Source of the DNA: Myxococcales bacterium | GTDB taxonomy: Bacteria > Myxococcota_A > Polyangia > Haliangiales > Haliangiaceae | Direction of reading: 5' to 3' | DNA length: 64,000 bases | Assembly (NCBI GenBank): GCA_016707895.1 | Contig: JADJGV010000002.1 | Coordinates: 591,695 to 655,694, forward strand | In this document: positions 35,195-50,806 of the stretch, piece after piece | How positions within the stretch are numbered: position 1 is the first letter of the stretch | Layout: the number at the start of each line of letters is the position of its first letter | Made by a program: the position numbers and the translations under genes | The notes under the pieces: generated by a model | The model's database searches: none | The model's input: only the letters and a program-made list of their open reading frames with translations | What the model was told of the DNA's origin: nothing

Positions 35195-35833
35195 TCACGG
35201 CCGAGCGGCCGCTGGCGAAGTGACCAGCCGGCCCGCGTCGAGCACCAGCTCGCGGGTCGCCACCTGCGCCCGCACCGCGGGATCGTGGGTGGCGATCAGC
35301 ACGCCAGCGCCGGCGGCGGCCGCGGCCGCCAGCAGCGTCGCCATCGCGGCCAGCGCGCCGGCGTCGAGCCCGTTGTCGGGCTCGTCGAGCACCAGCGCCG
35401 GCGGCGCGCCGATCAGCGCCGCCGCCAGGCACGCGCGCCGGCGCTGCCCCAGCGACATCCGCTCGAAGCGGCGATCGGCGATTGGCGCGAGCTCGAGCGC
35501 GTCGGCTACCGCGGTCGGCAGCGCCGCGCCGCCGCGCAGCCCGCCGACCAGCGCCCACAGCTCGGCCGCGGTCAGGTGGCCCGGCGGATCGGCGCCCTCG
35601 GGCACGTAGCCGACGCGGCGCCGGGTCCCCGAGGTCGCGCCGGCGATCGCCACCCAGCCGCGATCGATCGTCAGCGCGCCCGCGATCATCGCCAGCGTCG
35701 TCGACTTGCCGGCGCCGTTGCCGCCGACCAGCGCGACGAGCTCGCCGGGCGCCACCGCGAACGCCACGTCGTCGACCACCCAGCGGTCACCGCGGCGCTT
35801 GCCCAGCCCGCGCACCTCGATCGCCGCGGTCAT
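35195..35833 (-). CDS. ABC transporter ATP-binding protein
   Basis: 212-aa tail of track ORF 35195..38023. Walker A GGNGAGKST, signature LSLGQRRR, Walker B LVLDEP, H-loop THD. Confidence 0.75.
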   Translation of the reverse strand: MTAAIEVRGLGKRRGDRWVVDDVAFAVAPGELVALVGGNGAGKSTTLAMIAGALTIDRGWVAIAGATSGTRRRVGYVPEGADPPGHLTAAELWALVGGLRGGAALPTAVADALELAPIADRRFERMSLGQRRRACLAAALIGAPPALVLDEPDNGLDAGALAAMATLLAAAAAAGAGVLIATHDPAVRAQVATRELVLDAGRLVTSPAAARP

Positions 35834-36924
35834 CGCCCGCGCCCCCCGACGGCGACCGCGCCGCCGACCAGCACCACCGCCGCCACGCCGAGCAGCGACA
35901 GCATCCCGATCGCGATCACCGACGCCAGCGCCACGCCGCCCGCGCCGCCGGCCAGCGTCTGGCCCGGGTGCGGCGCCGCGATCGCCCGCCGCGCGACCGC
36001 GGTCATCGCCAGGCCGACGCCGACGCCGGCCGCGATCGACACCGCCGCGATCGCCGCGACGTGCGCCGCCGGCGGCGCCGCGATCGCGATCGTCGCCGCC
36101 GCCACCACCGCGCCCAAGAGCGCGCCGGCGATCACCAGCACCAGCGCCCGCGCCCCGGCCACCGCGCCGCGCGAGGTCGCGGCCGCCGCCACCCACGCCC
36201 GCAGCCGCAGGTCGTCCTCGACCACCGCGGTGCCCACCGCGACCAGCCCGCACGCCACCGCCACCGCCGCCACCGCCGCCACCAGCGTCGCCGACGGCAG
36301 CGCCGCGACCGCCGCGCTCTCGATCAGCGCCGCGCCCAGCGCGCCGCCCAGCACCGCCAGCCCCGCCGCGAACAGCACCGACCCGCCCCGCCGGCGCACG
36401 ATCGCCCGCGCGTGCACGCCGACCAGCGCCGCCACCGCGCCGCGCCACCGCGGCCGCCGCGGCGCCCGCACCCAGCGCGCCATCGCCAGCGCGATCGCCA
36501 GCGACGCCAGCGCCAGCCCGAGCCAGGTCAGCGCGCCGGTCGCGCCGCGCGCCGCGATCGCCACCGCCGCCCACGGCGCGTGGATCGCCAGCGCCGTCGC
36601 CAGCCGCGCCGCCACCTCGAGCCCCGGCGCCCCCGGCAGCGAGCGCAGCAGCTCGAGCCCGGGCGCACCGACGATCGCCCGCGCCGCCGGCGTCAGCAGC
36701 ACCAGCCAGCCGCACGCGACCACCGCGATCACCCGCGGCGCGCCGGCGGCCAGGGCCGCCACGTCGCGCGGGGCCAGGCCGTTGCCGCCGAACACCGCGC
36801 CACCGACGATCGCCGCGCCCAGCCACGCCGGCATCGCGCGGCCCAGCCCGGCGCGCCCCAGCGTCGCCAGCCACACCCGTCCGGCGCGGGTCCAGGCCCA
36901 GGCGGACGGCGCGGCGAGCTGCAT
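35830..36924 (-). CDS. ABC-transporter-associated polytopic membrane protein (permease-like)
   Basis: Translationally coupled (ATGA) upstream of the ATPase. Very hydrophobic Ala/Leu/Val/Gly-rich protein with about 8-10 TM helices. Confidence 0.5.
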   Translation of the reverse strand: MQLAAPSAWAWTRAGRVWLATLGRAGLGRAMPAWLGAAIVGGAVFGGNGLAPRDVAALAAGAPRVIAVVACGWLVLLTPAARAIVGAPGLELLRSLPGAPGLEVAARLATALAIHAPWAAVAIAARGATGALTWLGLALASLAIALAMARWVRAPRRPRWRGAVAALVGVHARAIVRRRGGSVLFAAGLAVLGGALGAALIESAAVAALPSATLVAAVAAVAVACGLVAVGTAVVEDDLRLRAWVAAAATSRGAVAGARALVLVIAGALLGAVVAAATIAIAAPPAAHVAAIAAVSIAAGVGVGLAMTAVARRAIAAPHPGQTLAGGAGGVALASVIAIGMLSLLGVAAVVLVGGAVAVGGRGR

Positions 36925-36979
36925 CGGCGCCACCATACAGCTTGACCCGCCCACGCGCTGGCCCTATGTCTCCACCGCA

Positions 36980-37993
36980 GTGCACTTCATCGACGAGGCG
37001 ACGATCCACGTGAAGGCCGGCGACGGCGGCGACGGCTCGTCGGCGATGCGCCGCGAGGACAACGTGCCGCTGGGCGGCCCGTCGGGCGGCGACGGTGGCA
37101 ACGGCGCCAGCGTGGTGTTCCGCGCCGACGTCCAGCTCGGCTCGCTGCTCGACTTCCGCTACAAGCGCCACTACAAGGGCGAGCGCGGCGAGCACGGCCG
37201 GGCCAAGGATCAGTACGGCGCGGCCGCCGAGGATCTGGTGCTGCGGGTGCCGGTCGGCACGGTGATCTACGACGCCGACACCGGCGATCTGCTGGCCGAC
37301 CTCGCCACCGACGGCGCGCGCGCGGTCGTGGCCCAGGGCGGCAAGGGCGGCCGCGGCAACATCCACTTCAAGACCCCGTGGAACCAGGCGCCGCGCACCT
37401 GCGAGCCGGGCACGCCGGGCCAGGAGCGCACGCTGCGCCTCGAGCTCAAGCTGCTCGCCGACGTCGGCCTGCTCGGCTACCCCAACGTCGGCAAGTCGAC
37501 GTTCATCTCGCGGGTGTCGCGGGCCCGGCCCAAGATCGCCGACTACCCGTTCACGACGCTGGCGCCCAACCTGGGGGTGGTGCGGCTGTCCGACGAGCGC
37601 AGCCTGATCATCGCCGACATCCCCGGGCTGATCGAGGGCGCCGCCGAGGGCGCGGGGCTCGGCCACCAGTTCCTGCGCCACGTCGAGCGCTGCCGCGCGC
37701 TGCTGCACATCCTCGACGACACGTACACCACCGGGCCCGAGCGCGATCCGCTCAAGGACTTCGACGTCATCAACGCCGAGCTGGCCCGCTACGCGCCGCA
37801 CCTGGCCGACAAGCCGCAGCTGGTCGTGCTCAACAAGCTCGACGCCGGCACCACCCACGGCTCGGTCGACGAGCTGACGGCGCAGTTCGCGGCCCGCGGC
37901 ATCACGCTGCACACCATGTCGGCCGCCACCGGCGAGGGCGTCGACGCGGTGATCGCGCGGCTGTGGGACCTGGTGCATCCGCGGCCGGAGTGA
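36980..37993 (+). CDS. obg: GTPase Obg/CgtA
   Basis: GTG start gives (M)HFIDEATIHVKAGDGGDG…, the Obg N-domain Gly-rich motif. GLLGYPNVGKST is the G1 motif, DIPGLIEGA the G3, NKLD the G4. Tail of track ORF 35285..37993. Confidence 0.85.
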   Translation: MHFIDEATIHVKAGDGGDGSSAMRREDNVPLGGPSGGDGGNGASVVFRADVQLGSLLDFRYKRHYKGERGEHGRAKDQYGAAAEDLVLRVPVGTVIYDADTGDLLADLATDGARAVVAQGGKGGRGNIHFKTPWNQAPRTCEPGTPGQERTLRLELKLLADVGLLGYPNVGKSTFISRVSRARPKIADYPFTTLAPNLGVVRLSDERSLIIADIPGLIEGAAEGAGLGHQFLRHVERCRALLHILDDTYTTGPERDPLKDFDVINAELARYAPHLADKPQLVVLNKLDAGTTHGSVDELTAQFAARGITLHTMSAATGEGVDAVIARLWDLVHPRPE

Positions 37994-38012
37994 TCCGGCG
38001 CCGCGCCGGATC
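37992..38012 (+). terminator. GC-rich hairpin (9-bp stem GATCCGGCG/CGCCGGATC, 3-nt loop) overlapping the obg stop; putative U-tract-less terminator/attenuator
   Basis: Perfect inverted repeat read directly from the sequence. No T-tract follows, as is usual in very high-GC genomes. Confidence 0.3.
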
Positions 38013-38028
38013 GTGATATCCACGAGGC

Positions 38029-39963
38029 GTGCCGCGGTTCGAGCAGCGCGCCACCGGCCGGTTCTGGGAGGTCGAGGTCGACGATCGCGTCGTCACGACG
38101 TGCGTCGGGGCCATCGGCGGTGACCCGCCCAAGCCCGCCACCGTCGAGCACGCCGACGCCGACGCGGCCTACTACGCCGCGACCTCCGCGATCCGCCAGC
38201 AGCGCCGGCGCGGCTTCGTCGACGCCGGCCCGGCCCAGGTCCTCGCCGGCGCCGAGCCGTGGACCGGCGCCGGCTCGACCATCCTGCTCGACGAGTTCTT
38301 CGACCGCGGCGACGACCGATTCGGTCTCGAGCTGCGACGCGCGACCGCCGCCGCCAAGCTCGGCGCGCTGGCCGAACGCTGGTATCGCGATCCCCGGCCG
38401 TGGGCCCGGGCCCAGCTCCTGGCCTACCTCGACGACGGCTGCGATCGCCCGCACCACAAGCAGCTGATCAAGAAGCTGTTCAAGCTGGCCGAGGCCGCCG
38501 ACGACGATCGCGCGATGGCCGGGTTCCTGGTCGCGTTCGATCGCCTGACCCGGAGGTCGTTGGTCGCGGTCACGCGCTACGACTGGCAGACCCGCGTCAC
38601 CACCACGACCCACGTGCTGCGCGACGATCCCAGCGTCATCGAGAGCCTGGTCCGCGCCGGCCGCCCCGCGATCGACAGCCCTGTGTTCTCGCGGTCGACG
38701 CGGCGCTACCTGGCGCGCCGGGCCGCGCGCTACTTCCGCTACCTCGGCTACCGCGATCCGGCCCGCTACCGCGCGGCGATGCTGGTGGCGCTGGCCCGCT
38801 ACACCGACGCCGCGCTCGGCACCACCACCCGGCTGCTCGACGCCTGGGGCCTGACCCACGCGCTCTACGGCGGCTCGCCGGTGCTGGTCCACCACCCGCG
38901 CGGCCTGCGCCTCGCGCCCGATCGCCGGCTCGACGAGCTGACCCCGGCGCCGCAGATCCCGGCGGCGTGGCAGGACGCGTTCGCCGATGTCTGGCGCCTG
39001 TTCGTCGACGCGCGCAGCCGCGCGGTCCGGGCGTGGGCGCTGGCCTGGCTGCGCGCCCACCACGCCGCCGAGCTGGCCGCGCTGCCGTTCGCCGAGGTCG
39101 CGACGCTCCTGCGCTCGCCCCACGCCGACGTCGCCGCGCTCGGCGTCGAGCGGCTGCCGCACACCCGCGGCCTCGAGACCGTGCCGCTGACGATCTGGCT
39201 CGAGCTGCTCGCGCTCGGCGATCTCGACGTGGTCGCCGCGGTGGTCGCGACGGTCGAGCGGGTCGTGACGCCAGCCCGGACCACGCTCGCACAGTGCCTC
39301 GACCTGGCCGGCGCGCCGATCGCCGCGGTCGCGGAGCTCGGCCTCGCTTGGGCCAAGACCAAGCCGATCACCACCGTCGACGATCTGCACCTGATCGCGC
39401 GCCTGGCCCGGGCCCGGGTCGCCGCCGTCCGCGCCGCTGGCGCCGCGTGGGCCCTCGAACTCGCCGGCGCCCACCCCGCGGTCGACTACACCTTCGTCCG
39501 CGACCTGTGCGACGCGCCGTTCGCCGAGGTCCGCGCGCCGGCGCTCGCGGTTGCCGCCGCCGACCCGCGGTTCGCCGCGGTGCCGGCGCTGTGGTTCGCG
39601 CTCACCGAGTCGCCGTACGACGACGTCCGCGCCGCGGTGCTGGCCCACGCCACCCGCTGGCACGCGACCGCCACGCCGGCCACGCTGCAGTGGGTGTGGT
39701 CGGCGGCGATCCTCGCGGTCCACCGCGGCAGCAAGACCAAGGCCGGCGTGCCGCGCGCGATCGCCGACCGCGTCGTCGCGCACCCCGACGAGGCCGAGCA
39801 GCTGCTGCCGATGCTCGCGCTCGCGCTGCACAGCGTCCGCGCCCCCGAGCGCGCGGCGGCGCTGGCGGCGCTGGCGCGCGCGCTCCACGGCGATCCGGCG
39901 CTGGCGGCCCGGGCCCGCGTCCACCTGCCGACGCTCACCGTCGGCGTCGAGGTGATCCGGTGA
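38029..39963 (+). CDS. WGR-domain protein with C-terminal helical (HEAT/ARM-like) repeats
   Basis: N-terminus MPRFEQRATGRFWEVEVDDRVVTTCVGAIGG…RRRGFVD is a WGR domain. The middle region is similar to MolR/DUF4132-type proteins. The C-terminal half is repetitive Ala/Leu helices. Confidence 0.7.
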   Translation: MPRFEQRATGRFWEVEVDDRVVTTCVGAIGGDPPKPATVEHADADAAYYAATSAIRQQRRRGFVDAGPAQVLAGAEPWTGAGSTILLDEFFDRGDDRFGLELRRATAAAKLGALAERWYRDPRPWARAQLLAYLDDGCDRPHHKQLIKKLFKLAEAADDDRAMAGFLVAFDRLTRRSLVAVTRYDWQTRVTTTTHVLRDDPSVIESLVRAGRPAIDSPVFSRSTRRYLARRAARYFRYLGYRDPARYRAAMLVALARYTDAALGTTTRLLDAWGLTHALYGGSPVLVHHPRGLRLAPDRRLDELTPAPQIPAAWQDAFADVWRLFVDARSRAVRAWALAWLRAHHAAELAALPFAEVATLLRSPHADVAALGVERLPHTRGLETVPLTIWLELLALGDLDVVAAVVATVERVVTPARTTLAQCLDLAGAPIAAVAELGLAWAKTKPITTVDDLHLIARLARARVAAVRAAGAAWALELAGAHPAVDYTFVRDLCDAPFAEVRAPALAVAAADPRFAAVPALWFALTESPYDDVRAAVLAHATRWHATATPATLQWVWSAAILAVHRGSKTKAGVPRAIADRVVAHPDEAEQLLPMLALALHSVRAPERAAALAALARALHGDPALAARARVHLPTLTVGVEVIR

Positions 39964-41654
39964 AGGTCGACCTCCGCTACCACGGCGGCTCGGGGCTGCG
40001 CGAGCTGGCCGGCGGCGCCGGCCTGCGGTTCGCGACCAACGTCGCGCGGCTGCCGGTCGCGTTCGACGGCGAGCTGGTCGAGCCGCTGCGCTTCCGCGAG
40101 GCGGTGAGCGCGCTGCACGAGATCGTCGTCGGCGATCTGCGGTTCCAGCCGCGCGACAAGCGCGCGTACCAGGCGTGGCTGGCGCGCCAGGCCGCCGACG
40201 AGGCCACGCTGCGCGCCGCCGCCACCGCGCGCGGCCAGGCCGACGCGCTGGCCCGGGGCCCCGGCGGCCCGCCGCCGCCCGGCCTCGAGGCCGACTTCCG
40301 CCGCCAGCACGACCTGTACTGGACCGCGCGCCGCGCCTGGGCCGTCGAGCTCAACCGCAACGACCCGGCGATGTTCCGCGCGCTGGTGCCGTGCGATCCG
40401 GTCGTGACCGTCGCCCCCGACGTCGTCACCTTCGAGTGCTTCAGCAAGGACGAGTCGGCCTACGGCTGCCTGTCGGTCGATCGCGACGGCTTCCGCCCGG
40501 CCGCCGAGGTCGCGCTCGGCACCACCAACGTCGACTACTCGCTGGCGCTCTACGAGCACTTCCAGACCATCCGCACCTACCGACCGACCCGGCTGCAGGT
40601 CGACCCGGGCGGCGTCAGCGCCGCGGTCGGCGCGGCGTCCGCGCTGCGCGAGGAGAAGATCGACCTGCCGCCGTCGTGGCTGCGCGGGTTCGGCCAGCTC
40701 CAGGCGGCGATGGCGCTGCCGGCGCGCCACGTCGAGCTGTCGCCCGACGTCGTCTACTCGCTGCTGGCGTACCTGCGCCGCCACCGTGAGCGCACCGGCC
40801 CGCGCGCGCTGCGGTTCGTGCTCGCGCCGGGTCAGCCGCCGCAGGTCGTGATCGAGCCGTGGGGCGTCACGCTCACCTCGCGCGGCGCGCCGTACGCCGG
40901 CGACCGCGCCGAGGAGATCAAAGTGTGGGGCCGGCGCCGCTTGCTGGCGTTCGCGCGCACGCTGCCGCTGGCCGAGCGCTACGACGTGCGCCTGCTCGGC
41001 ACTGGCCTGCCGAGCGTGTGGATCGCGCGCATGGGCGCGCTGCGCCTGACCCTGGCGCTGTCGGGCTGGACCGCCAACGACTGGGCGCGGGGCTCGAACC
41101 TCGACGGCCACTTCGCCCGCTACACCGCCCACGCCAGCGCCGTCGACGCCGTGGCCCGGATCCTGGCCGCGCGCCACGTCGCGCCGATGGCCGCGCTGAC
41201 CGCCGCCGTGCCCGAGCCGCGCGAGACCGTGCTGGCCGCGCTGTTCGAGCTGGCGCGCCGCGGCCAGGTCGCGTTCGACTACGCGATCGACGCCTACCGC
41301 TGGCGGCCGATCCTCGACGCCGCGATCACCGACGCCGCGCTCGGCCCCGAGCCCGAGGAGACGGTGGCCGGGCGCCGGCTCGCCGCCAGCGTCACGATCG
41401 AGCGCCGCGAGCCACTCGGCGACGGCCGCCGCGCGCTGGTGGCCAAGGTCGGCGGCACCTCGTGCGAGGCGGTGCTCGACGCCGACGATCGGCTCGGCCG
41501 CGCCCGCTGCACCTGCTCGTACTTCCATCGCTTCCGCCTGCGCGCGGGGCCGTGCCGCCACCTGCTGGCGCTGCGCCTCCACGCCACGGCGCCCGACGAT
41601 CGCGCGCTGCCGGCGGCGCGCGTCGTCGCGTCCAACCCCCGGCGGTCGACCTGA
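39960..41654 (+). CDS. SWIM zinc-finger protein
   Basis: GTG start overlaps the WGR stop (GTGA). C-terminal CTCSYFHRFRLRAGPCRHLLAL is a CxCxnCxH SWIM motif. 564 aa. Confidence 0.7.
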   Translation: MKVDLRYHGGSGLRELAGGAGLRFATNVARLPVAFDGELVEPLRFREAVSALHEIVVGDLRFQPRDKRAYQAWLARQAADEATLRAAATARGQADALARGPGGPPPPGLEADFRRQHDLYWTARRAWAVELNRNDPAMFRALVPCDPVVTVAPDVVTFECFSKDESAYGCLSVDRDGFRPAAEVALGTTNVDYSLALYEHFQTIRTYRPTRLQVDPGGVSAAVGAASALREEKIDLPPSWLRGFGQLQAAMALPARHVELSPDVVYSLLAYLRRHRERTGPRALRFVLAPGQPPQVVIEPWGVTLTSRGAPYAGDRAEEIKVWGRRRLLAFARTLPLAERYDVRLLGTGLPSVWIARMGALRLTLALSGWTANDWARGSNLDGHFARYTAHASAVDAVARILAARHVAPMAALTAAVPEPRETVLAALFELARRGQVAFDYAIDAYRWRPILDAAITDAALGPEPEETVAGRRLAASVTIERREPLGDGRRALVAKVGGTSCEAVLDADDRLGRARCTCSYFHRFRLRAGPCRHLLALRLHATAPDDRALPAARVVASNPRRST

Positions 41655-41670
41655 TGTATCGTCCCTCGCA

Positions 41671-41695
41671 CCTCCCGTCCTGCAAGGAGATCCGC
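41671..41695 (+). repeat. retron inverted repeat a1 (CCTCCCGTCCTGCAAGGAGATCCGC)
   Basis: Reverse complement of the 41891-41915 repeat with 2 mismatches in 25 nt. It lies 17 nt after the SWIM stop. Confidence 0.6.
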
Positions 41696-41890
41696 GCGCA
41701 CGAGCCCACTATGCTGCGGCGTTCCGCCGTGGCGGGACTTGCTCCACCATTGCTCACCCACGCCCGATTTTCTTTTGGGCCCTATGCGGTGCTAGCGCTC
41801 CTCACTGAGACGACCACGAGAGTCTTGGGAGCCGCTAGCACCGCCGGGCCCTCGGTGATCGGTCGCGGTCCTGCGCACGAAGTCGAGCGA

Positions 41891-41915
41891 GCGGATCTCC
41901 TTGGAGGGCGGGAGG
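41891..41915 (+). repeat. retron inverted repeat a2 (GCGGATCTCCTTGGAGGGCGGGAGG)
   Basis: See a1. Confidence 0.6.
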
Positions 41916-41927
41916 CACGACACTGAC

Positions 41928-43550
41928 ATGGGGTTCTGGGACAAGGTCAAACGGTTCTTCGGCGGCGGCGGCGCGCTGCAGCCGGACCCGTCGGCGCCCA
42001 CTGCGGCACCGCCGTCGACGCCCACGCCGTCGACCCCGGCGCCGGCCCCCGCGCACACCGCCCCTGCGCCGCCAGCCGCGCGCACCGCACCCGCGCCGAC
42101 CTCGACCGACGACAGCGCGCGCTTCCGCAACCCGGCCATCCTCGGCCTGTCCGCCGCCGAGCTGCGCAAGCGCGCGCTGCGCATCAACCCGTACCAGACG
42201 CCGTGGATCGGCCGGGTCGACACCATCCCGCCGCAGAGCGACGAGCGCACCGCGATCATCGACCGCGGCCTGATCCTGCGCGGCCTGCTCACCGCCGCGC
42301 AGATCGAAGAGATCCACCGCGTCGGCGACCTGTGGCTCGCCCACCACGACGCGATGCGCCTGGCCGCCGCCGCCGGCGCCGCGTCGGGCGAGGCCGCGGT
42401 CGCCGCCGAGCGCGCCCGCCGCGCCGAGGCCAAGCGCGCCAAGCAGGCCGCGGCCGCCGCCCGCGCCGCCGCCCGCGCCGCCGCCGTCGCCGCGCGCCGC
42501 GCCACCGACATCATCTTCGTCGGCCGCGGCGTGTCCGCCGGCCTCGCCGACCGCCGCAGCCACGTCGAGCAGCTCGCCGCCGCCGGCCTGCCGGTCCTGG
42601 CCGCGCCCGCCGATCTCGCCGCCGCGCTCGGCCTGACCGTGCCGCGCCTGCGATGGCTGTGCTTCCACGCCGACGCGCCCGCGAAGACCCACTACACGTA
42701 CTTCACGATCCCCAAGCGCTCGGGCGGCACCCGCAAGCTGGCCGCGCCGCACCGCCAGCTCGCCGCGGCCCAGCGCTGGATCTTCGATCAGATCCTCGCG
42801 AAGCTGCCGATCACCGACGCCGCCCACGGCTTCGTCCCCGGGCGCTCGACGGTGACCAACGCCCGGCCCCACGTCGGCCAGCGCATCGTCATCAACCTGG
42901 ACCTGGCCGACTTCTTCCCGTCGATCACGTTCCCGCGCGTCCGCGGCCTGTTCGCCTCGCTCGGCTACTCGCCGGCGATCGCGACGCTCCTGGCCATGCT
43001 CACCACCGAGGCGCCGCGGGTCGAGGTCGAGTTCGCCGGCCGCACCCACTACGTCGCCACCGGTCCGCGCGCGCTGCCCCAGGGCGCGTGCACCAGCCCG
43101 ACCTTGGCCAACCTGGTCGCGCGCAAGCTCGATCGTCGCCTCGGCGGCGCTACCCGCAAGCTCGGCTGGACCTACACCCGCTACGCCGACGACCTGACGT
43201 TCTCGGCGCCGGCCGCGGGCTCGGCCCAGGTCGCGCTGATCTTCGCCCGGGTCCGCGCCATCGTCACCGCCGAGGGCTTCGCGGTGAACGAGGCCAAGGG
43301 CCGGGTCCAGCGCGGCGGCCGCCACACCGTCACCGGCCTGGTCGTCAACGATCGGCTCGCCGTCCCGCGCGAGCAGGTGCGCCGGGTCCGCGCGATCCTC
43401 CACGGCGCCCGCACGACCGGGCTGGCCGCGCAGAACCGCGCCGGCCATCCCGACTTCCGCGCATGGCTGCAAGGCACGATCGCCTACATCCACATGGTCG
43501 ACCCCGCGCGCGGCGCCGCCTTCCAGGCCCAACTCGACGCGCTATCGTGA
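41928..43550 (+). CDS. retron-type reverse transcriptase with ~210-aa N-terminal extension
   Basis: RBS GGAGGG, then ATG 41928. RT blocks: YFTIPKRSGGTRKLAAP; NARPH (retron NAxxH); INLDLADFFPSI; LPQGACTSPTLANL; YTRYADDLTFS (YADD); and RGGRHTVTGLVVN (retron VTG). The N-terminus has a Pro/Ala/Thr low-complexity region, a helical domain and an Ala/Arg/Lys coiled-coil. Confidence 0.85.
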   Translation: MGFWDKVKRFFGGGGALQPDPSAPTAAPPSTPTPSTPAPAPAHTAPAPPAARTAPAPTSTDDSARFRNPAILGLSAAELRKRALRINPYQTPWIGRVDTIPPQSDERTAIIDRGLILRGLLTAAQIEEIHRVGDLWLAHHDAMRLAAAAGAASGEAAVAAERARRAEAKRAKQAAAAARAAARAAAVAARRATDIIFVGRGVSAGLADRRSHVEQLAAAGLPVLAAPADLAAALGLTVPRLRWLCFHADAPAKTHYTYFTIPKRSGGTRKLAAPHRQLAAAQRWIFDQILAKLPITDAAHGFVPGRSTVTNARPHVGQRIVINLDLADFFPSITFPRVRGLFASLGYSPAIATLLAMLTTEAPRVEVEFAGRTHYVATGPRALPQGACTSPTLANLVARKLDRRLGGATRKLGWTYTRYADDLTFSAPAAGSAQVALIFARVRAIVTAEGFAVNEAKGRVQRGGRHTVTGLVVNDRLAVPREQVRRVRAILHGARTTGLAAQNRAGHPDFRAWLQGTIAYIHMVDPARGAAFQAQLDALS

Positions 43551-43613
43551 TCGACGCCCCGGTCGACGCACCGCCCGACTGCGCCGCCAACGGGGCCCGC
43601 GCGCCACACGCTG

Positions 43614-43799
43614 ATGGTCGCGGCCGCCGACATCGCCGATCCCGCGGCGCGCACCTACGACATCACCGGCGAGGCCACCCACGGCCACACCGTGATGCTC
43701 ACCGCAGCCGACTTCGCGGAGCTGGCCGCCAACCGCCGGGTCACCGTGACCTCGAGCGCGGTCGGTCACAGCCACGCCGTCACGATCACCTGCGTCTGA
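43614..43799 (+). CDS. small hypothetical protein (61 aa), possible retron-associated ORF
   Basis: ATG start 64 nt after the RT stop. Strong third-position GC bias. His-rich (HGH, HSH) motifs. No TM segment. Confidence 0.4.
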   Translation: MVAAADIADPAARTYDITGEATHGHTVMLTAADFAELAANRRVTVTSSAVGHSHAVTITCV

Positions 43800-43974
43800 G
43801 CCGTCGCCGCGATCTCGACAAAATTCATCGGGATTTCAGACTTCTGCAAGATCGTGACGGCGGTCAAGGACGGGGGCGCGGCAGTTTGATCCGCTCCCTG
43901 CGGGGTGTTACAACTGCTCTATTCCACTCGAATTTGGCCGACCCGTCCCTCGGCCATCGTGGACCGGTTCGCCG

Positions 43975-44855
43975 GTGCGGAGCCCCATGCGTCAAACCCA
44001 GATCTCCCGCCGCGGTCTCGACCGCACCTCCGTGACTGTCCTCGCGCTGGCGCTCGCCGCTGGCTCCGTCGCAGCGCAGCCTGGTGCGACCCCGACCGGC
44101 ACGCCGACGACGCCCAAGCCTCCGACCACCGCGCTGCCCGCCACGACCGGCACCCCGGCGACCGGCACCCCGACGACCGACCGACGACGCCGACGACCGG
44201 CACGCCGACGACGCCGACCACCGGCACGCCGGCCACCGGCACGCCGACGACGGGCGCCCCGACGCCAGGCACCACGCCGACCGATCCCACCGATCCCAAC
44301 CAGACCGCCACCGCCGACACCGTCGACCCCGAGTCGATGCCGGTCAACCTGCGGCTGCGCCGTCTCGAGCAGCGCGTGCAGGCCCTCAAGGAGCGCGCCT
44401 GGCGCGCCAAGGCCCGCACCACGCAGCTCAAGGAGGCCGTCATCGGCGGCGGCGTCGGCGCCCAGGCCACGCTCGTCCACGAGAACAAGATGGGCAGCTC
44501 GTTCCGGCTGATCCGCCTGGTCTACGCCCTCGACGGCACCCAGGTGTTCGCCCGCTCCGAGGACACCAGCCCCAACCTGTACAAGACCAAGTCGTTCGAC
44601 ATCCTCACCGGCCCGATCTCGCCCGGCAGCCACTCGATCAGCGCGCTCGCGGTGTACCGCGGCCACGGCTACGGCGTGTTCAAGTACCTCAACAAGTACA
44701 CGTTCACCGTCCGCGCCAGCCACACCTTCACCGCCGCCGAGGGCAAGGCCACCCGCATCGAGGCGTCGGGCTTCGAGAAGGGCGGCCGCACCACGCCGCT
44801 CGAGAAGCGCCCCGCGATCGACTTCAAGGTGACCGCCGGGACCGGGGAGAAGTAA
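43975..44855 (+). pseudogene. Pro/Thr-repeat secreted protein with -1 frameshift in the (TPTTG)n repeat; first gene of Glt/Nfs-like operon
   Basis: Frame A (43975-) reads MRQTQISRRGLDRTSVTVLALALAAGSVAAQP + TPTGTPTT…, a signal peptide plus linker. Frame B (to 44855) continues PTTPTTGTP…NQTATADTV… into a globular C-domain. The switch is at ACCGACCGACG near 44175-44190. It is either a sequencing error in a slippery repeat or a genuine frameshift. Confidence 0.5.
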
Positions 44856-44858
44856 GCC

Positions 44859-47309
44859 ATGGCGTCCGGTTCGCGCACCGCGCTCGCCGCGGTGCTCATC
44901 GCATGCGCCGGCGGGGCGGTGGCCCCGGTCCGCGCCGACGTGCTCGACGACATCGGCAAGAAGCTGGTGACCGTCGAGGGCGAGGCCCGCGAGCTCGGCA
45001 GCGGCATCAAGAAGCCGACCGGCCAGCCCAAGAAGGACGACGTCATGTCGCGCCGGCTGATCGACGCCCAGGTGGCGTTCGGCGTCGGCAACTACGACAA
45101 CGCCGCGCTCCTGCTCTACGACTACGTCGCGCAAGCGACGCGCGGCCGCGACTACGACACCGCGCTCTACTACCTCGGCGAGGCGCTGTTCCAGAAGAAG
45201 GACCGCGTCGCGTCGCGCACCTACTTCACCCAGCTGGTCAAGGAGCTGCCGTCGAGCAAGTACTACCAGCAGTCGCTCGAGCGGCTGATCGAGCTGTCGC
45301 TGATCCTCGGCGACACCGACGGCGTCGACGCGTGGCTGGCCGACCTCGATCGGGTGCCGTCCGACAAGCGGCGGCCGTCGGTGCCCTACGTCCGCGGCAA
45401 GTACGCGTTCGCGCAGAACGACTTCGCCGGCGCCGAGGGCTGGTTCAAGCAGGTCCCGGCCGACTCCGAGTACGGCTTCCAGGCCCAGTACTACCTGGGC
45501 ACCGCGTACGTCGGCATGAGGGAGCTCGGCAAGGCCACCCAGGCCATGGCCGCGCTGCTCGATCGCGAGCCCAAGACCGACGACGACGCCCGGGTCAAGG
45601 AGCTGGCGCAGCTGGCGCTGGGCCGCCTGTACTACGAGCGCGATCAGCCGACCAAGGCCATCGACAGCTACCTGCTGCTCGACCGCAAGAGCGACCTGTT
45701 CCCCGACGCGCTCTACGAGGTCGCGTGGGTCTACGTGAAGTCGCAGCAGTACGACAAGGCGCTGCGCGCGCTCGAGCTGTTGGCGCTGGCCGACCCGACC
45801 TCGCAGCGGCTGCCGACGGTGCGCATCCTCGAGGGCAACCTACGCGTGCGCAAGGCCCAGGGCATCCACGAGAAGGTGCTGGCCGGCCTCGACACCGGCA
45901 GCGCCAGCGGCACCGAGGAGTACGACAAGGCGACCCGCCTGTTCGGCGAGACCCACGAGCTGTACGCGCCGCCCCACGACGAGCTGGCCAAGATCATCGC
46001 CGCCAACGAGGACCCGCAGGCGTTCCTGGCGCAGATCACCGGCCGCGCGTCGGAGACCTTCCACACCAACTCGACGATGCCGGAGATCGCCGCGGCGTGG
46101 ATCCGCGACGAGCCCAACGTCAACCGGGTGATGACCGTCGAGACCGACCTCGGCGACATCCAGGGCGAGATCAACGAGGCCGAGCGCACGATCCAGCGGC
46201 TCGACGCCGTGCTCGGCTCGGCCAACCGGGTCAACATCTTCCCGTCGCTGGCCACCAAGCGCTCGCGCTCGACCGAGCTGCTCGAGGACCTGCTCGGCAT
46301 GCGCGAGAAGCTGGCCGACGAGGAGTACCGGCTGGCGCAGCAAGGCAACGCCAACGCCCAGCTGGCCGCGGTCGAGCCGCTGACCCAGCGCCGGCGCGCG
46401 CTCTTGACGCAGTGGAAGGCGATGCCCGACGCGGCGATCAGCTACGGCCAGCGCGTCGAGAAGGCCCAGGGCCAGTTCGACGACGTCGATCGCCAGCTGG
46501 CCGAGGTGCTGGTCACGATCGACACCACCCAGGCCACGGTCGTCGCGCTCGACAAGTTTGTCAAGGAGTCGGCCGAGCCGTCGGACCCCGCCGCCAAGAA
46601 GGCGTGGATCGCCCAGAAGCTCGAGGCGCAGAAGGTGATCGCCGAGCTCAACATCGAGATGGCCGAGATGCACCAAGAGCTCGACGGCATCCGCCGCGAG
46701 GTCGTGCTGGGCCGCGACGAGGCCGGCAGCGGCGACGAGGTGTCGCTGCGCGCCCGGACGCTGCGCGATCAGCTGCGCGCCGCCTACGCCGACGAGCACC
46801 GCGCGGTGGCGCGGCTGACGCTGGCCGACGCCAAGCGCGGCGGCAAGATCGGTGACCTGATCCGCCGCTCCGACGCGGCGATGGGGCAGCTCGACACCGT
46901 CAACGACACGATCGATCAGATCGTCGAGGTGGCGCTGACCGAGGTCCAGGACACGCTGACCTACGAGAAGGCCGAGCTGGCGTCGTACCGCCGCGAGTTC
47001 TTGCTGTACGAGGCCGAGTCGCGCGCGCTCGGCGGCACCGTGCTCGGCAACGCGTTCCGCGACGTCAAGGCCAAGTTCTACGACGTGCTGGTGCGCTCCG
47101 ACGTCGGCGTCGTCGACGTCGGCTGGTCGCAGAAGGAAGAGTCCGACGAGGATCTGTCGCGGCTCAACGTCGAGAAGCAGCGCGAGATCAAGCAGCTGCG
47201 CGACGAGTTCGCCGACCTGATCCGCGAGGCCAAGGAGGACGCGCCCGCGCCGGCCCCCGAGCCGGCCCCGCCGCCGCCCGATGGCGCCACGCCGGGAGGT
47301 CTGCCGTGA
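44859..47309 (+). CDS. TPR-repeat / coiled-coil envelope protein (Glt/Nfs-like)
   Basis: Signal peptide MASGSRTALAAVLIACAGGAVAPVRA. TPR-like YY…A…Y repeats are followed by a long Glu/Lys/Gln coiled-coil. Translationally linked to neighbours. Confidence 0.7.
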   Translation: MASGSRTALAAVLIACAGGAVAPVRADVLDDIGKKLVTVEGEARELGSGIKKPTGQPKKDDVMSRRLIDAQVAFGVGNYDNAALLLYDYVAQATRGRDYDTALYYLGEALFQKKDRVASRTYFTQLVKELPSSKYYQQSLERLIELSLILGDTDGVDAWLADLDRVPSDKRRPSVPYVRGKYAFAQNDFAGAEGWFKQVPADSEYGFQAQYYLGTAYVGMRELGKATQAMAALLDREPKTDDDARVKELAQLALGRLYYERDQPTKAIDSYLLLDRKSDLFPDALYEVAWVYVKSQQYDKALRALELLALADPTSQRLPTVRILEGNLRVRKAQGIHEKVLAGLDTGSASGTEEYDKATRLFGETHELYAPPHDELAKIIAANEDPQAFLAQITGRASETFHTNSTMPEIAAAWIRDEPNVNRVMTVETDLGDIQGEINEAERTIQRLDAVLGSANRVNIFPSLATKRSRSTELLEDLLGMREKLADEEYRLAQQGNANAQLAAVEPLTQRRRALLTQWKAMPDAAISYGQRVEKAQGQFDDVDRQLAEVLVTIDTTQATVVALDKFVKESAEPSDPAAKKAWIAQKLEAQKVIAELNIEMAEMHQELDGIRREVVLGRDEAGSGDEVSLRARTLRDQLRAAYADEHRAVARLTLADAKRGGKIGDLIRRSDAAMGQLDTVNDTIDQIVEVALTEVQDTLTYEKAELASYRREFLLYEAESRALGGTVLGNAFRDVKAKFYDVLVRSDVGVVDVGWSQKEESDEDLSRLNVEKQREIKQLRDEFADLIREAKEDAPAPAPEPAPPPPDGATPGGLP

Positions 47310-50300
47310 TCCGCACTCGCCTCATCGCCGCGCTGCTCGGCGTCGCCGTCGCCGCCGGCCCCGTCGTCGCCCAGCCCGGCGCGCAGGGCCCGGGCAGCGG
47401 CCCCTGGAACCAGCCTGGCTCCGGCCCCGGTCTCGGCGTGCCGTCGGGCGCGGTCCCCACGCCGCTCACCGACGCCGAGCGCGCCGCGCTCAAGGAGGTC
47501 GAAGCCGACTGGGGCCGCTACGTCGGCCAGGCCGACGAGCACCACCGCCGGCTGCGCGATCAGCTGCTGCGCTCGTTCGACGAGAAGACCGCCGACCTCG
47601 AGGCCCGCTACGCCTCGCGGATCGCCGACGCGACCGCGACCAAGGCCGAGCGCCAGCGCTCGATCATCGCGCAGCTCGAGAAGTTCATCGCCGATCACCC
47701 CGACCATCCGCAGTTCACCCCGGACGCGATGTTCCGGCTGGCCGACCTGTACCTCGACGTCGCCGACGAGGCGCTCGACCTGCTGACCGATCCCTCGGCC
47801 GAGCCGATCGCCGACTATTCGAAGTCGCTCGAGCTGTGGGAGCAGATCGTCACCCGGTTCCCCGACTACCGGCAGATGCCGTCGGTGCTGTACCTGCTGG
47901 CGTACTACGGCAAGACCAAGGATGAGCGCCGGTCGATGGTGCTGTTCCTGGCCCTGACCTGCACCAACCACTTCAAGTGGAACGACGTGCCCACCGCGGC
48001 GCCGACCAAGGAGGAGGCGCTGGCGCGGATCGATCGGCCCGAGCTGACCGATCCCTACGGCGACTGCCAGCCGTGGCCCGACGCCGACGTCGAGCTGGTC
48101 CGCCACGCCTGGGTGCGCGGCCTCGCCGACTACCACTTCACCGTCCCCGGCGAGCTCGACGAGGCGATCAGCGCCTACAACAAGGTCGTCGGCACCGCCA
48201 AGGACTCGCCGCTCTACGCCGAGGCGCTCTACAAGCTGGCCTGGTCGTACTACAAGCGCGACAAGCTCATCGAGTCGATCCAGAAGTTCGACGAGTCGGT
48301 GAAGCTCTACGACGACATCGTCGCCAAGGGCGCGATCCCGACGCTCGAGCTGCGCGAGGAGTCGCTGCAGTACATCGCGATCGGCTTCACCGATCCGTGG
48401 AAGGGCGAGACCGACCCCGATCCGGTCAAGGCCTTCGACCGCGCGCGCGAGTTCTACAAGGGCCGCGAGAACGAGCCCCACGTCCGCGACGTGTGGGAGG
48501 CGATGGGCGGCGCGTTCATGGAGCTCCAGGCCTACGACCAGGCCGTCGACTCGTACCGCATCGCGATCGGGCCGCCGTGGGAGCTCAACGCGCGCAACCC
48601 GCTGGTGCACCAGGCGATCGTCGACGCCTTCGAGGCCAAGGGCGACAAGCTGGCCGCCGACGAGGCCGCCGCGCAGCTCGCCATCCGCTACGCGCCGGGC
48701 ACGCCCTGGTACATCGCCAACGAGAAGGACCGCGAGGCGATGGAGAACCAGCGCCGCATCGCGGAGCGCGCGCTGTACGCCTCGGCCCGCAACACCCACC
48801 TGGCCGCGACCAACCTGCGCAAGGAGTACGAGGCCGGCGGCAAGACCGAGCCGGCGCTGAAGGAGGAGTACCTCGCGCTCTACGCCTCGGCGGTCAAGCT
48901 GTACCAGACCTTCGTCAAGCAGTACCCCGAGAGCGACTACGCCTACGAGTTCACCTACTACCAGGGCGAGGCGCTGTTCTACAGCGAGCGCTACATGGAG
49001 GCGGTCGAGCAGTACAAGTGGGTGCGCGACCACCGCGACCTGTCCGAGGCGTTCTTCCTCGACGCCGCCAAGAGCATCCTGGCCAGCTACGAGGCCGAGG
49101 TGGCCAAGCAGGTGGCGGCCGGCCAGCTGCCCGAGCTGCGGGTGCCGACCTCCGACGAGCTCAAGGCGCTGCCGCAGCCGCTGACGCCGATGTCGATCCC
49201 GGAGCTGTACCTGCAGCTGCAGGCGCAGTGGGACGACTACCAGAACGTCGTCAACGACCCGGCGACCGCGCCGCAGCAGGGCATCAACGCCGCGCTGGTC
49301 AGCCTGGCGTACCTGCACATCGACGACGCGATCGCCCGCATGGACAAGGTCATGACCAAGTTCTGCGGCGTGCCCGAGGCGATCGCCGCCAAGGACGGCC
49401 TGCTCGCGCTGTACGAGGCGACCGGCCAGCTCGAGAAGTTCACCGAGGTGAACAACAAGTTCATCAGCCAGAAGTGCGGCGACGCCAAGGCGATCGAGGC
49501 GGCCAAGAGCCAGAACCGCTCGGTCGAGTTCATGAAGGCCGGCCAGCAGTACGCCGACGGCAAGTTCCTCGAGGCCGCCGAGAGCTTCTACCGCTTCTAC
49601 AAGATCGCCCCGGCCGCCGACGCCGACGGCCCGACCGCGCTCTACAACTCGGCCGCGGCCTACATGCAGGCCAACCGCCCCAAGACCGCGATCGCGCTGT
49701 TCAAGGAGTTCACCCAGAGCAAGGAGAAGAACTACCGGGAGAGCCCGTACTTCCTCGAGGCGATGCGCCTGACCGCGGCCAGCCAGCAGAGCGTCTTCGA
49801 CTACGACGCGGCGATCGCCACCAACCTCGAGCTGTACGCGGTGGCCAAGGACGCCAAGAAGCGCGGCATCAAGCCGCCGCCGCCGCTGCCGGGCGAGGCG
49901 CAGCGCACCACCGATCAGATCGCGCTCGAGGCGCTGTACAACGCCGCGTTCCTGGCCGAGCTCAACCGCGACTTCAAGCGCGCGGTCGACCTGTTCGGCA
50001 AGTACGACAAGGAAGAGACCGACCGCGGCAAGAAGAGCGACGCCGCCTGGGAGGTCGTCATGATCTACAAGACCTCGGGCGACATCTCGAGCCTGATCGC
50101 CGCCGCCGATCGCTGGCGCCGGGGCTACGGCGCCGACGCCGGCAACGAGGACAAGTTCGTCCAGTCGTACTACGACACCGCGGGCCTGTGGCGGCGCAAG
50201 GGCAAGACCAAGGACGCCGAGGCGGCCGGCCGGCAGACCATGGACGCGTGGGTCACCCGCGGCAGCGTCAAGGGCGGCAAGGGCGCCAAGCTGGCCGGCG

Positions 50301-50806
50301 AGTGGGCGCTGTACTTCGCCGAGAGCTACTTCACCAAGACCTTCCAGCCGTACAAGATCACCGAGGTGGCCAAGACCATCGATCGGTCCAAGGCGATCAA
50401 GGCCGCGCTCGAGAAGCTGACCCTCGAGGTCCAGGACAAGTACGTCGCGCTCGACGCCTACGGCGTGGCCGAGTACTCGATGGCGGCCAAGGTGCGCTTC
50501 GGTGAGAGCCTGTCGCAGTTCGCCGAGAAGCTGGCGCAGTCGCCGACGCCCAAGTACGTGCTCGACCTCGACAAGAAGAACCCCGACGCCGGCGCGGTCG
50601 CGGCCTACGAAGAAGGCCTGGCCCGCAACCTGGCCAAGTACGTCGACCAGGCCAAGGCGCAGTGGACCGAGGTGGTCAACCTCGCGAAGAAGAACGGCGT
50701 GTCCAACAAGTGGAGCCAGCTCGCGCTGGAGAACCTCAACCGCGAGTTCCCGGACGAGTTCCCGGTCCTGCACCAGGAGCTGTTCGACGGCACGGAGGCG
50801 CCATGA
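47306..50806 (+). CDS. large TPR-repeat protein (GltD/NfsD-like)
   Basis: Signal peptide MIRTRLIAALLGVAVAAGPVVAQP. 1166 aa of TPR-like repeats. Start overlaps the upstream stop by 4 nt. Confidence 0.7.
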   Translation: MIRTRLIAALLGVAVAAGPVVAQPGAQGPGSGPWNQPGSGPGLGVPSGAVPTPLTDAERAALKEVEADWGRYVGQADEHHRRLRDQLLRSFDEKTADLEARYASRIADATATKAERQRSIIAQLEKFIADHPDHPQFTPDAMFRLADLYLDVADEALDLLTDPSAEPIADYSKSLELWEQIVTRFPDYRQMPSVLYLLAYYGKTKDERRSMVLFLALTCTNHFKWNDVPTAAPTKEEALARIDRPELTDPYGDCQPWPDADVELVRHAWVRGLADYHFTVPGELDEAISAYNKVVGTAKDSPLYAEALYKLAWSYYKRDKLIESIQKFDESVKLYDDIVAKGAIPTLELREESLQYIAIGFTDPWKGETDPDPVKAFDRAREFYKGRENEPHVRDVWEAMGGAFMELQAYDQAVDSYRIAIGPPWELNARNPLVHQAIVDAFEAKGDKLAADEAAAQLAIRYAPGTPWYIANEKDREAMENQRRIAERALYASARNTHLAATNLRKEYEAGGKTEPALKEEYLALYASAVKLYQTFVKQYPESDYAYEFTYYQGEALFYSERYMEAVEQYKWVRDHRDLSEAFFLDAAKSILASYEAEVAKQVAAGQLPELRVPTSDELKALPQPLTPMSIPELYLQLQAQWDDYQNVVNDPATAPQQGINAALVSLAYLHIDDAIARMDKVMTKFCGVPEAIAAKDGLLALYEATGQLEKFTEVNNKFISQKCGDAKAIEAAKSQNRSVEFMKAGQQYADGKFLEAAESFYRFYKIAPAADADGPTALYNSAAAYMQANRPKTAIALFKEFTQSKEKNYRESPYFLEAMRLTAASQQSVFDYDAAIATNLELYAVAKDAKKRGIKPPPPLPGEAQRTTDQIALEALYNAAFLAELNRDFKRAVDLFGKYDKEETDRGKKSDAAWEVVMIYKTSGDISSLIAAADRWRRGYGADAGNEDKFVQSYYDTAGLWRRKGKTKDAEAAGRQTMDAWVTRGSVKGGKGAKLAGEWALYFAESYFTKTFQPYKITEVAKTIDRSKAIKAALEKLTLEVQDKYVALDAYGVAEYSMAAKVRFGESLSQFAEKLAQSPTPKYVLDLDKKNPDAGAVAAYEEGLARNLAKYVDQAKAQWTEVVNLAKKNGVSNKWSQLALENLNREFPDEFPVLHQELFDGTEAP

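Follow-up and report, generated by a model that had tools for sequence, protein, structure and literature searches.

What kind of element do the reverse transcriptase (RT) gene at 41928-43550 and the long inverted repeat directly upstream of it form, and how far does this element extend? Both lie in a stretch of 64,000 nucleotides (nt) of a Myxococcales bacterium (GCA_016707895.1, contig JADJGV010000002.1, positions 591,695 to 655,694), the whole of which we call the window. An earlier reading made from the letters alone, the sequence-only reading, had taken them for an unannotated retron built of a repeat-flanked RNA gene and an RT. We conclude, with a probability of about 0.9, that 38029-43550 is a complete type XIII retron, of the class of Mx162, Sa163, Ne144 and Mx65, in the chromosome of a Kofleriaceae-like myxobacterium. 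In a retron, the RT turns a portion of its own small RNA into single-stranded DNA. Type XIII was the first retron class to be discovered, in 1984.

The cassette consists of a WGR-HEAT/ARM protein, a SWIM protein, an msr-msd RNA and an RT, in this order:

38029-39963, plus strand: accessory gene 1, 644 amino acids (aa), with an N-terminal WGR-like domain followed by HEAT/ARM-like helical repeats (Mestre cluster 216-type); the ARM protein
39960-41654, plus strand: accessory gene 2, 564 aa, a SWIM zinc-finger protein; its start overlaps the stop of gene 1 (GTGA)
41655-41927, plus strand: retron non-coding RNA gene (msr-msd), which occupies the entire intergenic gap between the SWIM and RT genes
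41928-43550, plus strand: retron RT, 540 aa, with its ATG at 41928, identified by Pfam, PADLOC and PDB matches and by its motifs

We show in the following to which class the RT belongs, and that the RNA structure, the priming context and the four-part cassette are conserved. The assignment of the RT is clear from its profile matches. The best PADLOC model was RT_XIII (1.5e-154), with the runner-up model at 4.4e-106, and the matching families were all retron RTs among the matches listed (25 of 60). In the PDB the top match was the RT of retron Ec86 (3.5e-40, aa 216-493 aligned), followed by other retron RTs, while a group II intron RT reached only 3.9e-8. The retron models of NCBIfam scored between 1e-59 and 1e-65, none above its curated cut-off, and the group II model 2.5e-14. 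By PADLOC, PDB and NCBIfam, the RT thus groups with retron RTs and not with those of group II introns, diversity-generating retroelements (DGRs) or abortive infection (Abi) systems. Pfam RVT_1 covers aa 261-459. The protein carries the retron-type region X motif NAxxH (NARPH at aa 311, 42858-42872), the region Y motif VTG (RHTVTGLVVN at aa 468, with VTG at 43329-43337) and the catalytic YADD (aa 419, 43182-43193), all of which the sequence-only reading had named correctly.

The RT has a variable N-terminus rich in Pro and Ala (aa 1-70), a conserved, clade-specific extension (aa ~71-240) that is kept among homologs, and a core at aa ~250-540. Its start codon at 41928 is backed by M1, G2, W4 and K8, which are conserved across 15 homologs. 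The first ~12 residues (MGFWDKVKRFFG) are conserved across families. Codons 1-70 (41928-42137) encode a hypervariable linker rich in Pro, Ala and Thr, with 62% nucleotide identity and indels in near-orthologs, compared with 93-95% elsewhere. The label 'unannotated' holds for the RNA gene but not for the RT, since an identical protein is already present at NCBI as 'MAG: RNA-directed DNA polymerase [Myxococcales bacterium]', with a partial copy in a Kofleriaceae metagenome-assembled genome (MAG).

The RNA gene between the SWIM and RT genes contains the following parts:

41666-41703, plus strand: 5' arm of the terminal inverted repeat; 38-nt arms by repeat search, of which 41672-41703 is supported by covariation
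41883-41920, plus strand: 3' arm of the terminal inverted repeat, by repeat search and covariation; carries GGAGG motifs and stops 7 nt short of the RT ATG
41672-41703 with 41883-41914, plus strand: arm helices, helices 1-4 of the consensus
41715-41731, plus strand: msr hairpin of 7 base pairs (bp) with a 3-nt loop; helix 5, conserved
41758-41868, plus strand: long three-part stem-loop with a base helix, a next helix and a sequence-variable apical hairpin
41758-41768 with 41858-41868, plus strand: conserved base helix of the long stem-loop (helix 6), 99.3% paired
41778-41782 with 41846-41850, plus strand: next helix of the long stem-loop (helix 7), 85.4% paired
41786-41797 with 41833-41844, plus strand: perfect 12-bp arms, included in the apical hairpin of the long stem-loop
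41704, plus strand: predicted priming (branching) G in GAGC, the first unpaired base 3' of the 5' arm
41754-41882, minus strand: predicted msd, the template of the multicopy single-stranded DNA (msDNA); first template base G41882, 3' end approximate

The repeat arms at 41671-41695 (CCTCCCGTCCTGCAAGGAGATCCGC) and 41891-41915 (GCGGATCTCCTTGGAGGGCGGGAGG) are Watson-Crick complementary at 23 of 25 positions, and of the other two one is a G-U wobble. A repeat search extends them to 38-nt arms with 84% complementarity. They are the sole such pair in the window, as found by a scan of its whole length for 25-nt arms that match at 23 or more positions and are separated by 150-260 nt. The 276-nt RNA stretch folds with -153.8 kcal/mol (z = -7.7 against dinucleotide shuffles), and its GC content is 66%, compared with 76% in the flanking genes and 74% in the window. 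The sequence-only reading had described this repeat, its complementarity, the inner hairpin, the lower GC content and a gap of 13 nt between the second repeat and the RT, and each was recovered as described, the ATG at 41928 lying 13 nt after 41915.

We scanned one genome per species and found 80 loci that encode relatives of the RT. The RNA gene lies upstream of the RT and on the same strand in 66 of these by nhmmer. A covariance model built from the alignment of the related loci recovered the RNA in ten further loci, full-length in nine and truncated by a contig end in one (L043). The RNA is homologous to RNAs beside type XIII-like cassettes in genomes of Myxococcus, Pyxidicoccus, Sorangium and Polyangium.

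In an alignment of 56 sequences, RNAalifold gave 49 consensus pairs, 37 of them with compensatory changes. This consensus is paired in 93.8% of cells, as opposed to 36-48% when the partners are slid by 1-3 columns, and none of 500 column shuffles reached the observed values on any measure. The arms contribute most, with compensatory changes in 26 of the 29 pairs of helices 1-4, and in the outer two arm helices all 21 pairs vary on both sides. The msr hairpin is paired in 99.5% of cells and has three pairs with compensatory changes; in helix 7 all five pairs have them. The centre of the long stem-loop cannot be aligned in sequence, yet this part folds into a stable hairpin in each of the 56 loci (median z = -7.4), which is the signature expected of an msd stem. 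The sequence-only reading had named two findings that would speak against a retron, an RT of another class and the lack of a conserved fold with complementary repeats. Both were looked for, neither was found, and its overall reading is supported.

The predicted priming site is conserved as well. The position of G41704 is a G in 55 of the 56 aligned loci, in the context CGAG[C/A/T]C, the exception being a misaligned row, and the first template base, G41882, is a G in all 56. Mx65 has the priming context GAGC, Mx162 and Sa163 have CAGC, and the stem stops just 5' of the G (Simon et al. 2019, PMC6868368); the layout in the window, with an arm, an unpaired G and xAGC, agrees with this description (PMC6868368). 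By analogy, G41704 is the predicted priming guanosine, and the complement of G41882 is the predicted 5' end of the msDNA. The 129-nt DNA complement folds to one long hairpin (-35.2 kcal/mol, z = -4.1).

The sequence-only reading was right in joining the repeats, the RNA and the RT, but it missed two co-directional accessory genes and therefore placed the extent of the unit too narrowly. We found both by open reading frame (ORF) calling guided by the GC content of third codon positions, and by translation. The gene at 38029-39963 matched the PADLOC model HEAT-ARM_XIII (1.8e-157) and that at 39960-41654 matched SWIM_XIII (1.3e-168). Gene callers report the same two genes with equal sizes on near-orthologous contigs. 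Type XIII is defined by an RT of clade 10 together with a SWIM protein that has a DEDE motif, a winged helix and CxCx12CxH, usually preceded by a WGR-like/HEAT-ARM protein (Mestre et al. 2020, PMC7736814). The SWIM protein of the window carries CxCx12CxH near its C-terminus (aa 517-534, 41508-41561), a winged helix and a DEDE motif from aa 146, of the cluster-114-type Dx7[D]x4Ex30-32Dx37E. Since the two accessory genes and the RT clade are all of type XIII, the unit spans 38029-43550.

How does this element compare with known retrons? Type XIII comprises Mx162 (Retron-Mxa1), Sa163 (Retron-Sau1), Ne144 (Retron-Nex2) and Mx65 (Retron-Mxa2) and includes the earliest retrons to be discovered (PMC7736814); a 2026 metagenome survey ranked it third among retron groups in frequency. 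We compared these members by their published descriptions and by the type XIII profile models. The window retron shares with them an RT with an extended N-terminus, NAxxH, VTG and YADD, an adjacent msr-msd with long terminal inverted repeats and a long msd hairpin, a priming G in a GAGC or CAGC context, the SWIM zinc-finger (DEDE) and WGR-like/HEAT-ARM partner genes, and a chromosomal location in a myxobacterial host. It differs in that its predicted msDNA is shorter than those of Mx162 and Sa163: the distance from the priming G to the 3' arm is 178 nt, as compared with ~211-221 nt implied by the published Mx162 numbers. Unlike the hosts of the named type XIII retrons, its host is an uncultured Kofleriaceae-like MAG. 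Retron-Eco1 (Ec86, type II-A), of all retrons the one best known structurally, provides the closest solved RT structure and follows the same logic of terminal-repeat pairing, priming G and msd hairpin. However, its RT is without the N-terminal extension, and it uses as effector a toxin resembling nucleoside deoxyribosyltransferases, to which neither the SWIM nor the WGR/HEAT protein is related. The element is thus a further member of the long-known myxobacterial Mx162 family and no new kind of retron.

The two accessory proteins were examined by structure prediction with AlphaFold2 (AF2). The model of the ARM protein (51 homologs) has a predicted local distance difference test (pLDDT) of 92.6 and shows a WGR fold, the remainder being predicted as HEAT/TOG-like repeats. 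The SWIM protein (60 homologs) was modelled with a pLDDT of 74.3 and a predicted template modelling score (pTM) of 0.74; confidence is high at aa 240-540 and lower at aa 146-235. In this model, aa ~146-370 are predicted to form a PCNA-like two-domain module, a range taken from the secondary structure, and Foldseek agrees independently (E 7e-8, probability 1.00). An hhalign comparison of the 60-sequence SWIM alignment with human PCNA was not significant (probability 0.2%), so the clamp resemblance is one of predicted structure. The likeness to PCNA, 9-1-1 and beta clamps is accordingly at the fold level of a predicted model (pLDDT 74, weakest in the first clamp-like domain). The SWIM protein differs from sliding clamps in its fusion to a winged helix and a SWIM finger and in an invariant acidic cluster, D146, D154, E159, D192 and E231/232, which is invariant in 60 homologs; ring formation is hypothetical. 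There are no solved structural homologs for either accessory protein, and a literature search turned up no report of a retron partner with a clamp-like fold.

It has been proposed that the SWIM protein derives from a DDE (IS256/Mutator-like) transposase (PMC7736814). No RNase H-like fold carrying the acidic residues was seen. The matches listed for the SWIM model include no transposase or RNase H-fold proteins, which leaves a transposase origin unsupported.

These findings suggest the following mechanism. The ends of the RNA, 41666-41703 and 41883-41920, pair, a folding that covariation shows. From retron biochemistry, the RT would bind the conserved msr hairpin, use the 2'-OH of G41704 as primer and copy leftwards from G41882. 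The product would be a branched RNA-DNA molecule, the DNA part of which would be ~120-130 nt long and form one long hairpin. Judged by their folds, both accessory proteins are probably binders of nucleic-acid structure rather than enzymes, and they most likely assemble with the RT and the msDNA as one ribonucleoprotein complex. By analogy with other retron types, this complex may guard against phage and activate an effector when disturbed; the SWIM protein's invariant acidic residues may carry this effector activity. A further proposal, which we put forward tentatively and with the odds somewhat against it, is that type XIII retrons use no toxin-type effector: the SWIM protein would be a PCNA/9-1-1-like clamp module joined to a winged helix and a zinc finger, and no domesticated DDE transposase, the ARM protein would be a PARP-like WGR DNA-end reader on a HEAT scaffold, and the two together would recognise the msDNA hairpin or be loaded onto it. 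Retrons of this class would then act by a DNA-structure sensing not yet described for retrons, and the acidic cluster would give a clamp fold an active site or metal-binding site of a new type.

Several points weigh against a functional type XIII retron as we describe it. Rfam is without a matching model for the RNA, and a search of 41000-44000 at E up to 10 returned chance-level microRNA and small RNA matches only, and neither a retron nor an intron family. In a scan of 37900-44000 there was no sigma-70-like promoter and no intrinsic terminator around the RNA gene, which may be co-transcribed with the upstream genes. The msDNA of this organism is predicted, not observed, and the template end at ~41754-41764, with an msDNA of ~120-130 nt, is an estimate by analogy with the msr lengths of Mx162. 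Structure comparison of the predicted models gave no toxin or enzyme fold for either accessory protein. Inheritance of the family in myxobacteria is reported to be mostly vertical, a pattern not typical of defence islands (PMC7736814, PMC6868368), and the window retron is syntenic within its genus. A literature search found no phage-challenge or other experimental defence data for type XIII; on type XIII function, on the partners of Mx162 and on clamp-like retron effectors, only the 2020 classification and the 2026 survey were found. An anti-phage role of type XIII would be an extrapolation from other types.

Some of these points suit a different account, in which the element is a type XIII retron that makes msDNA but serves a domesticated cellular role, in DNA metabolism, damage sensing or development, instead of anti-phage defence, with the WGR and PCNA-like modules as readers of DNA structure. 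Type XIII correlates moderately with host 16S, and Mestre et al. raise domestication explicitly (PMC7736814). Moreover, 27 of 28 myxobacteria contained msDNA, the inheritance of which is described as vertical (PMC6868368). The near-orthologs keep a strict synteny of ABC, obg, retron and TPR genes, no mobile-element genes were seen nearby, and the predicted accessory folds resemble binding modules of the DNA-repair type (PARP WGR, PCNA/9-1-1), without toxin folds. However, according to published abstracts, all retron types tested experimentally so far act in defence. The position of the retron is also not conserved beyond the genus, obg being adjacent in none of the 80 loci, which fits a moving element, and the acidic residues that are invariant in the SWIM protein may yet prove to be a nuclease site. 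We regard a domesticated role as possible but rather unlikely.

Far less probable is a remnant, decayed or inactive, in which msDNA synthesis has ceased. The lack of a detected promoter in 37900-44000 and the purely predicted msDNA would fit, but none of the three ORFs is broken or shortened compared with its homologs, the RT keeps its catalytic YADD, and the RNA gene is more constrained than the neighbouring coding sequence. Finally, an RT of another class (group II intron, DGR, Abi or defence-associated RT, DRT) beside an unrelated structured repeat, such as a terminator or a repetitive extragenic palindromic (REP)-like element, can be dismissed. In its favour are weak cross-matches only (TIGR04416 with 53 bits against a cut-off of 300, Drt2 and Drt3a with 24-26 bits), and the best matches, ahead by 40-140 orders of magnitude, are without exception to retron RTs. 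The RT has the retron-specific motifs NAxxH and VTG, Rfam gave no group II intron RNA in 41000-44000 (E up to 10), there was no T-tract terminator in 37900-44000, and the repeat covaries and holds a fixed place beside the RT in >70 loci.

For the type XIII retron itself, the distribution of the cassette is informative. The 80 loci come mostly from Myxococcota (Kofleriaceae, Polyangium, Sorangium, Labilithrix, Chondromyces, Pyxidicoccus, Myxococcus), with a minority from Planctomycetota or from MAGs labelled Acidobacteriota. The order ARM, SWIM, RNA, RT is found in 54 of them, and most others end at contig ends. Three near-orthologous contigs carry an ATP-binding cassette (ABC) ATPase, a membrane protein, obg, ARM, SWIM, RNA, RT and two large tetratricopeptide repeat (TPR) proteins; their RTs are 88% and 95% identical to the window RT, and one contig shows 99.55% DNA identity over 15.6 kb. 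Compared with the relatives at 88%, the RNA gene has two substitutions in 273 nt (99.3% identity), one in the apical loop and one after the 3' arm, while obg, ARM, SWIM and the RT core are 93-95% identical. By this comparison of sequences, the RNA gene is under stronger constraint than the neighbouring coding sequence.

In loci from Planctomycetota (Gemmatales, Rhodopirellula), the RNA gene lies between ARM and SWIM and not between SWIM and RT. These copies are:

L059, 2683-2962: RNA copy between ARM and SWIM
L061, 999-1259: RNA copy between ARM and SWIM
L063, 3169-3390: RNA copy between ARM and SWIM
L072, 3776-4051: RNA copy between ARM and SWIM

L063 has a second full-length RNA copy in the usual place (5097-5362). 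Two loci, L014 (Minicystis rosea) and L029, encode close homologs of the RT (59-65% identity) with full flanks; in the 6 kb upstream of these homologs there was no ARM or SWIM gene by tblastn and no RNA by the covariance model. These RTs may be stand-alone copies, or their partners may be encoded elsewhere.

Within 41903-41927, the GGAGG motifs of the 3' arm precede the RT start codon. Because they lie in the 3' arm, which ends 7 nt before the start, pairing of the arms could hide the ribosome-binding site of the RT, and translation of the RT could thereby be coupled to the folding of the RNA.

The analysis joins a gene labelled 'RNA-directed DNA polymerase', a SWIM zinc-finger gene, one labelled 'hypothetical protein' and an intergenic gap that looked empty into one four-part retron. 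Standard defence-system annotators would detect the element, because each of its three proteins is represented by a dedicated PADLOC model. With both the priming G and the start of the template predicted at single-base resolution, a construct for detecting the msDNA, or for engineering retrons in a host of high GC content, can be designed directly. Concrete, testable hypotheses on the mechanism of type XIII follow from the clamp-like and WGR folds predicted here, and the SWIM result applies to the whole family.

The surroundings of the retron were also inspected. The sequence-only reading had placed obg upstream and an envelope operon downstream. The gene for obg (36980-37993, plus strand) does lie upstream of accessory gene 1, but it is not the immediate neighbour of the repeat, as the genes for the 644- and 564-aa proteins intervene. 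Its adjacency to the retron is confined to the genus, and we rejected a functional linkage between the two, given that obg is adjacent in none of the 80 species-level loci. The proposed envelope operon consists of two large TPR-repeat proteins (816 and 1166 aa, 44859-50806), preceded by a Thr/Pro-rich protein of 316 aa (43905-44855); this downstream synteny is conserved. Directly after the RT lies a small ORF (43560-43799, 79 aa) with HGH and HSH motifs. It was rejected as a fifth part of the retron, since 43571-43830 does not align with the near-orthologs of 88% RT identity and the ORF has no family match above threshold; gene callers report nothing, or a different frame, at this place in near-orthologs. 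Further upstream, the high GC content of 35195-38023 produces very long, spurious overlapping ORFs on both strands, such as one of 942 aa on the minus strand and another of 902 aa on the plus strand. This part in fact encodes an ABC ATPase (minus strand, ending near 35195), a membrane protein of 368-374 aa (minus strand) and obg (plus strand).

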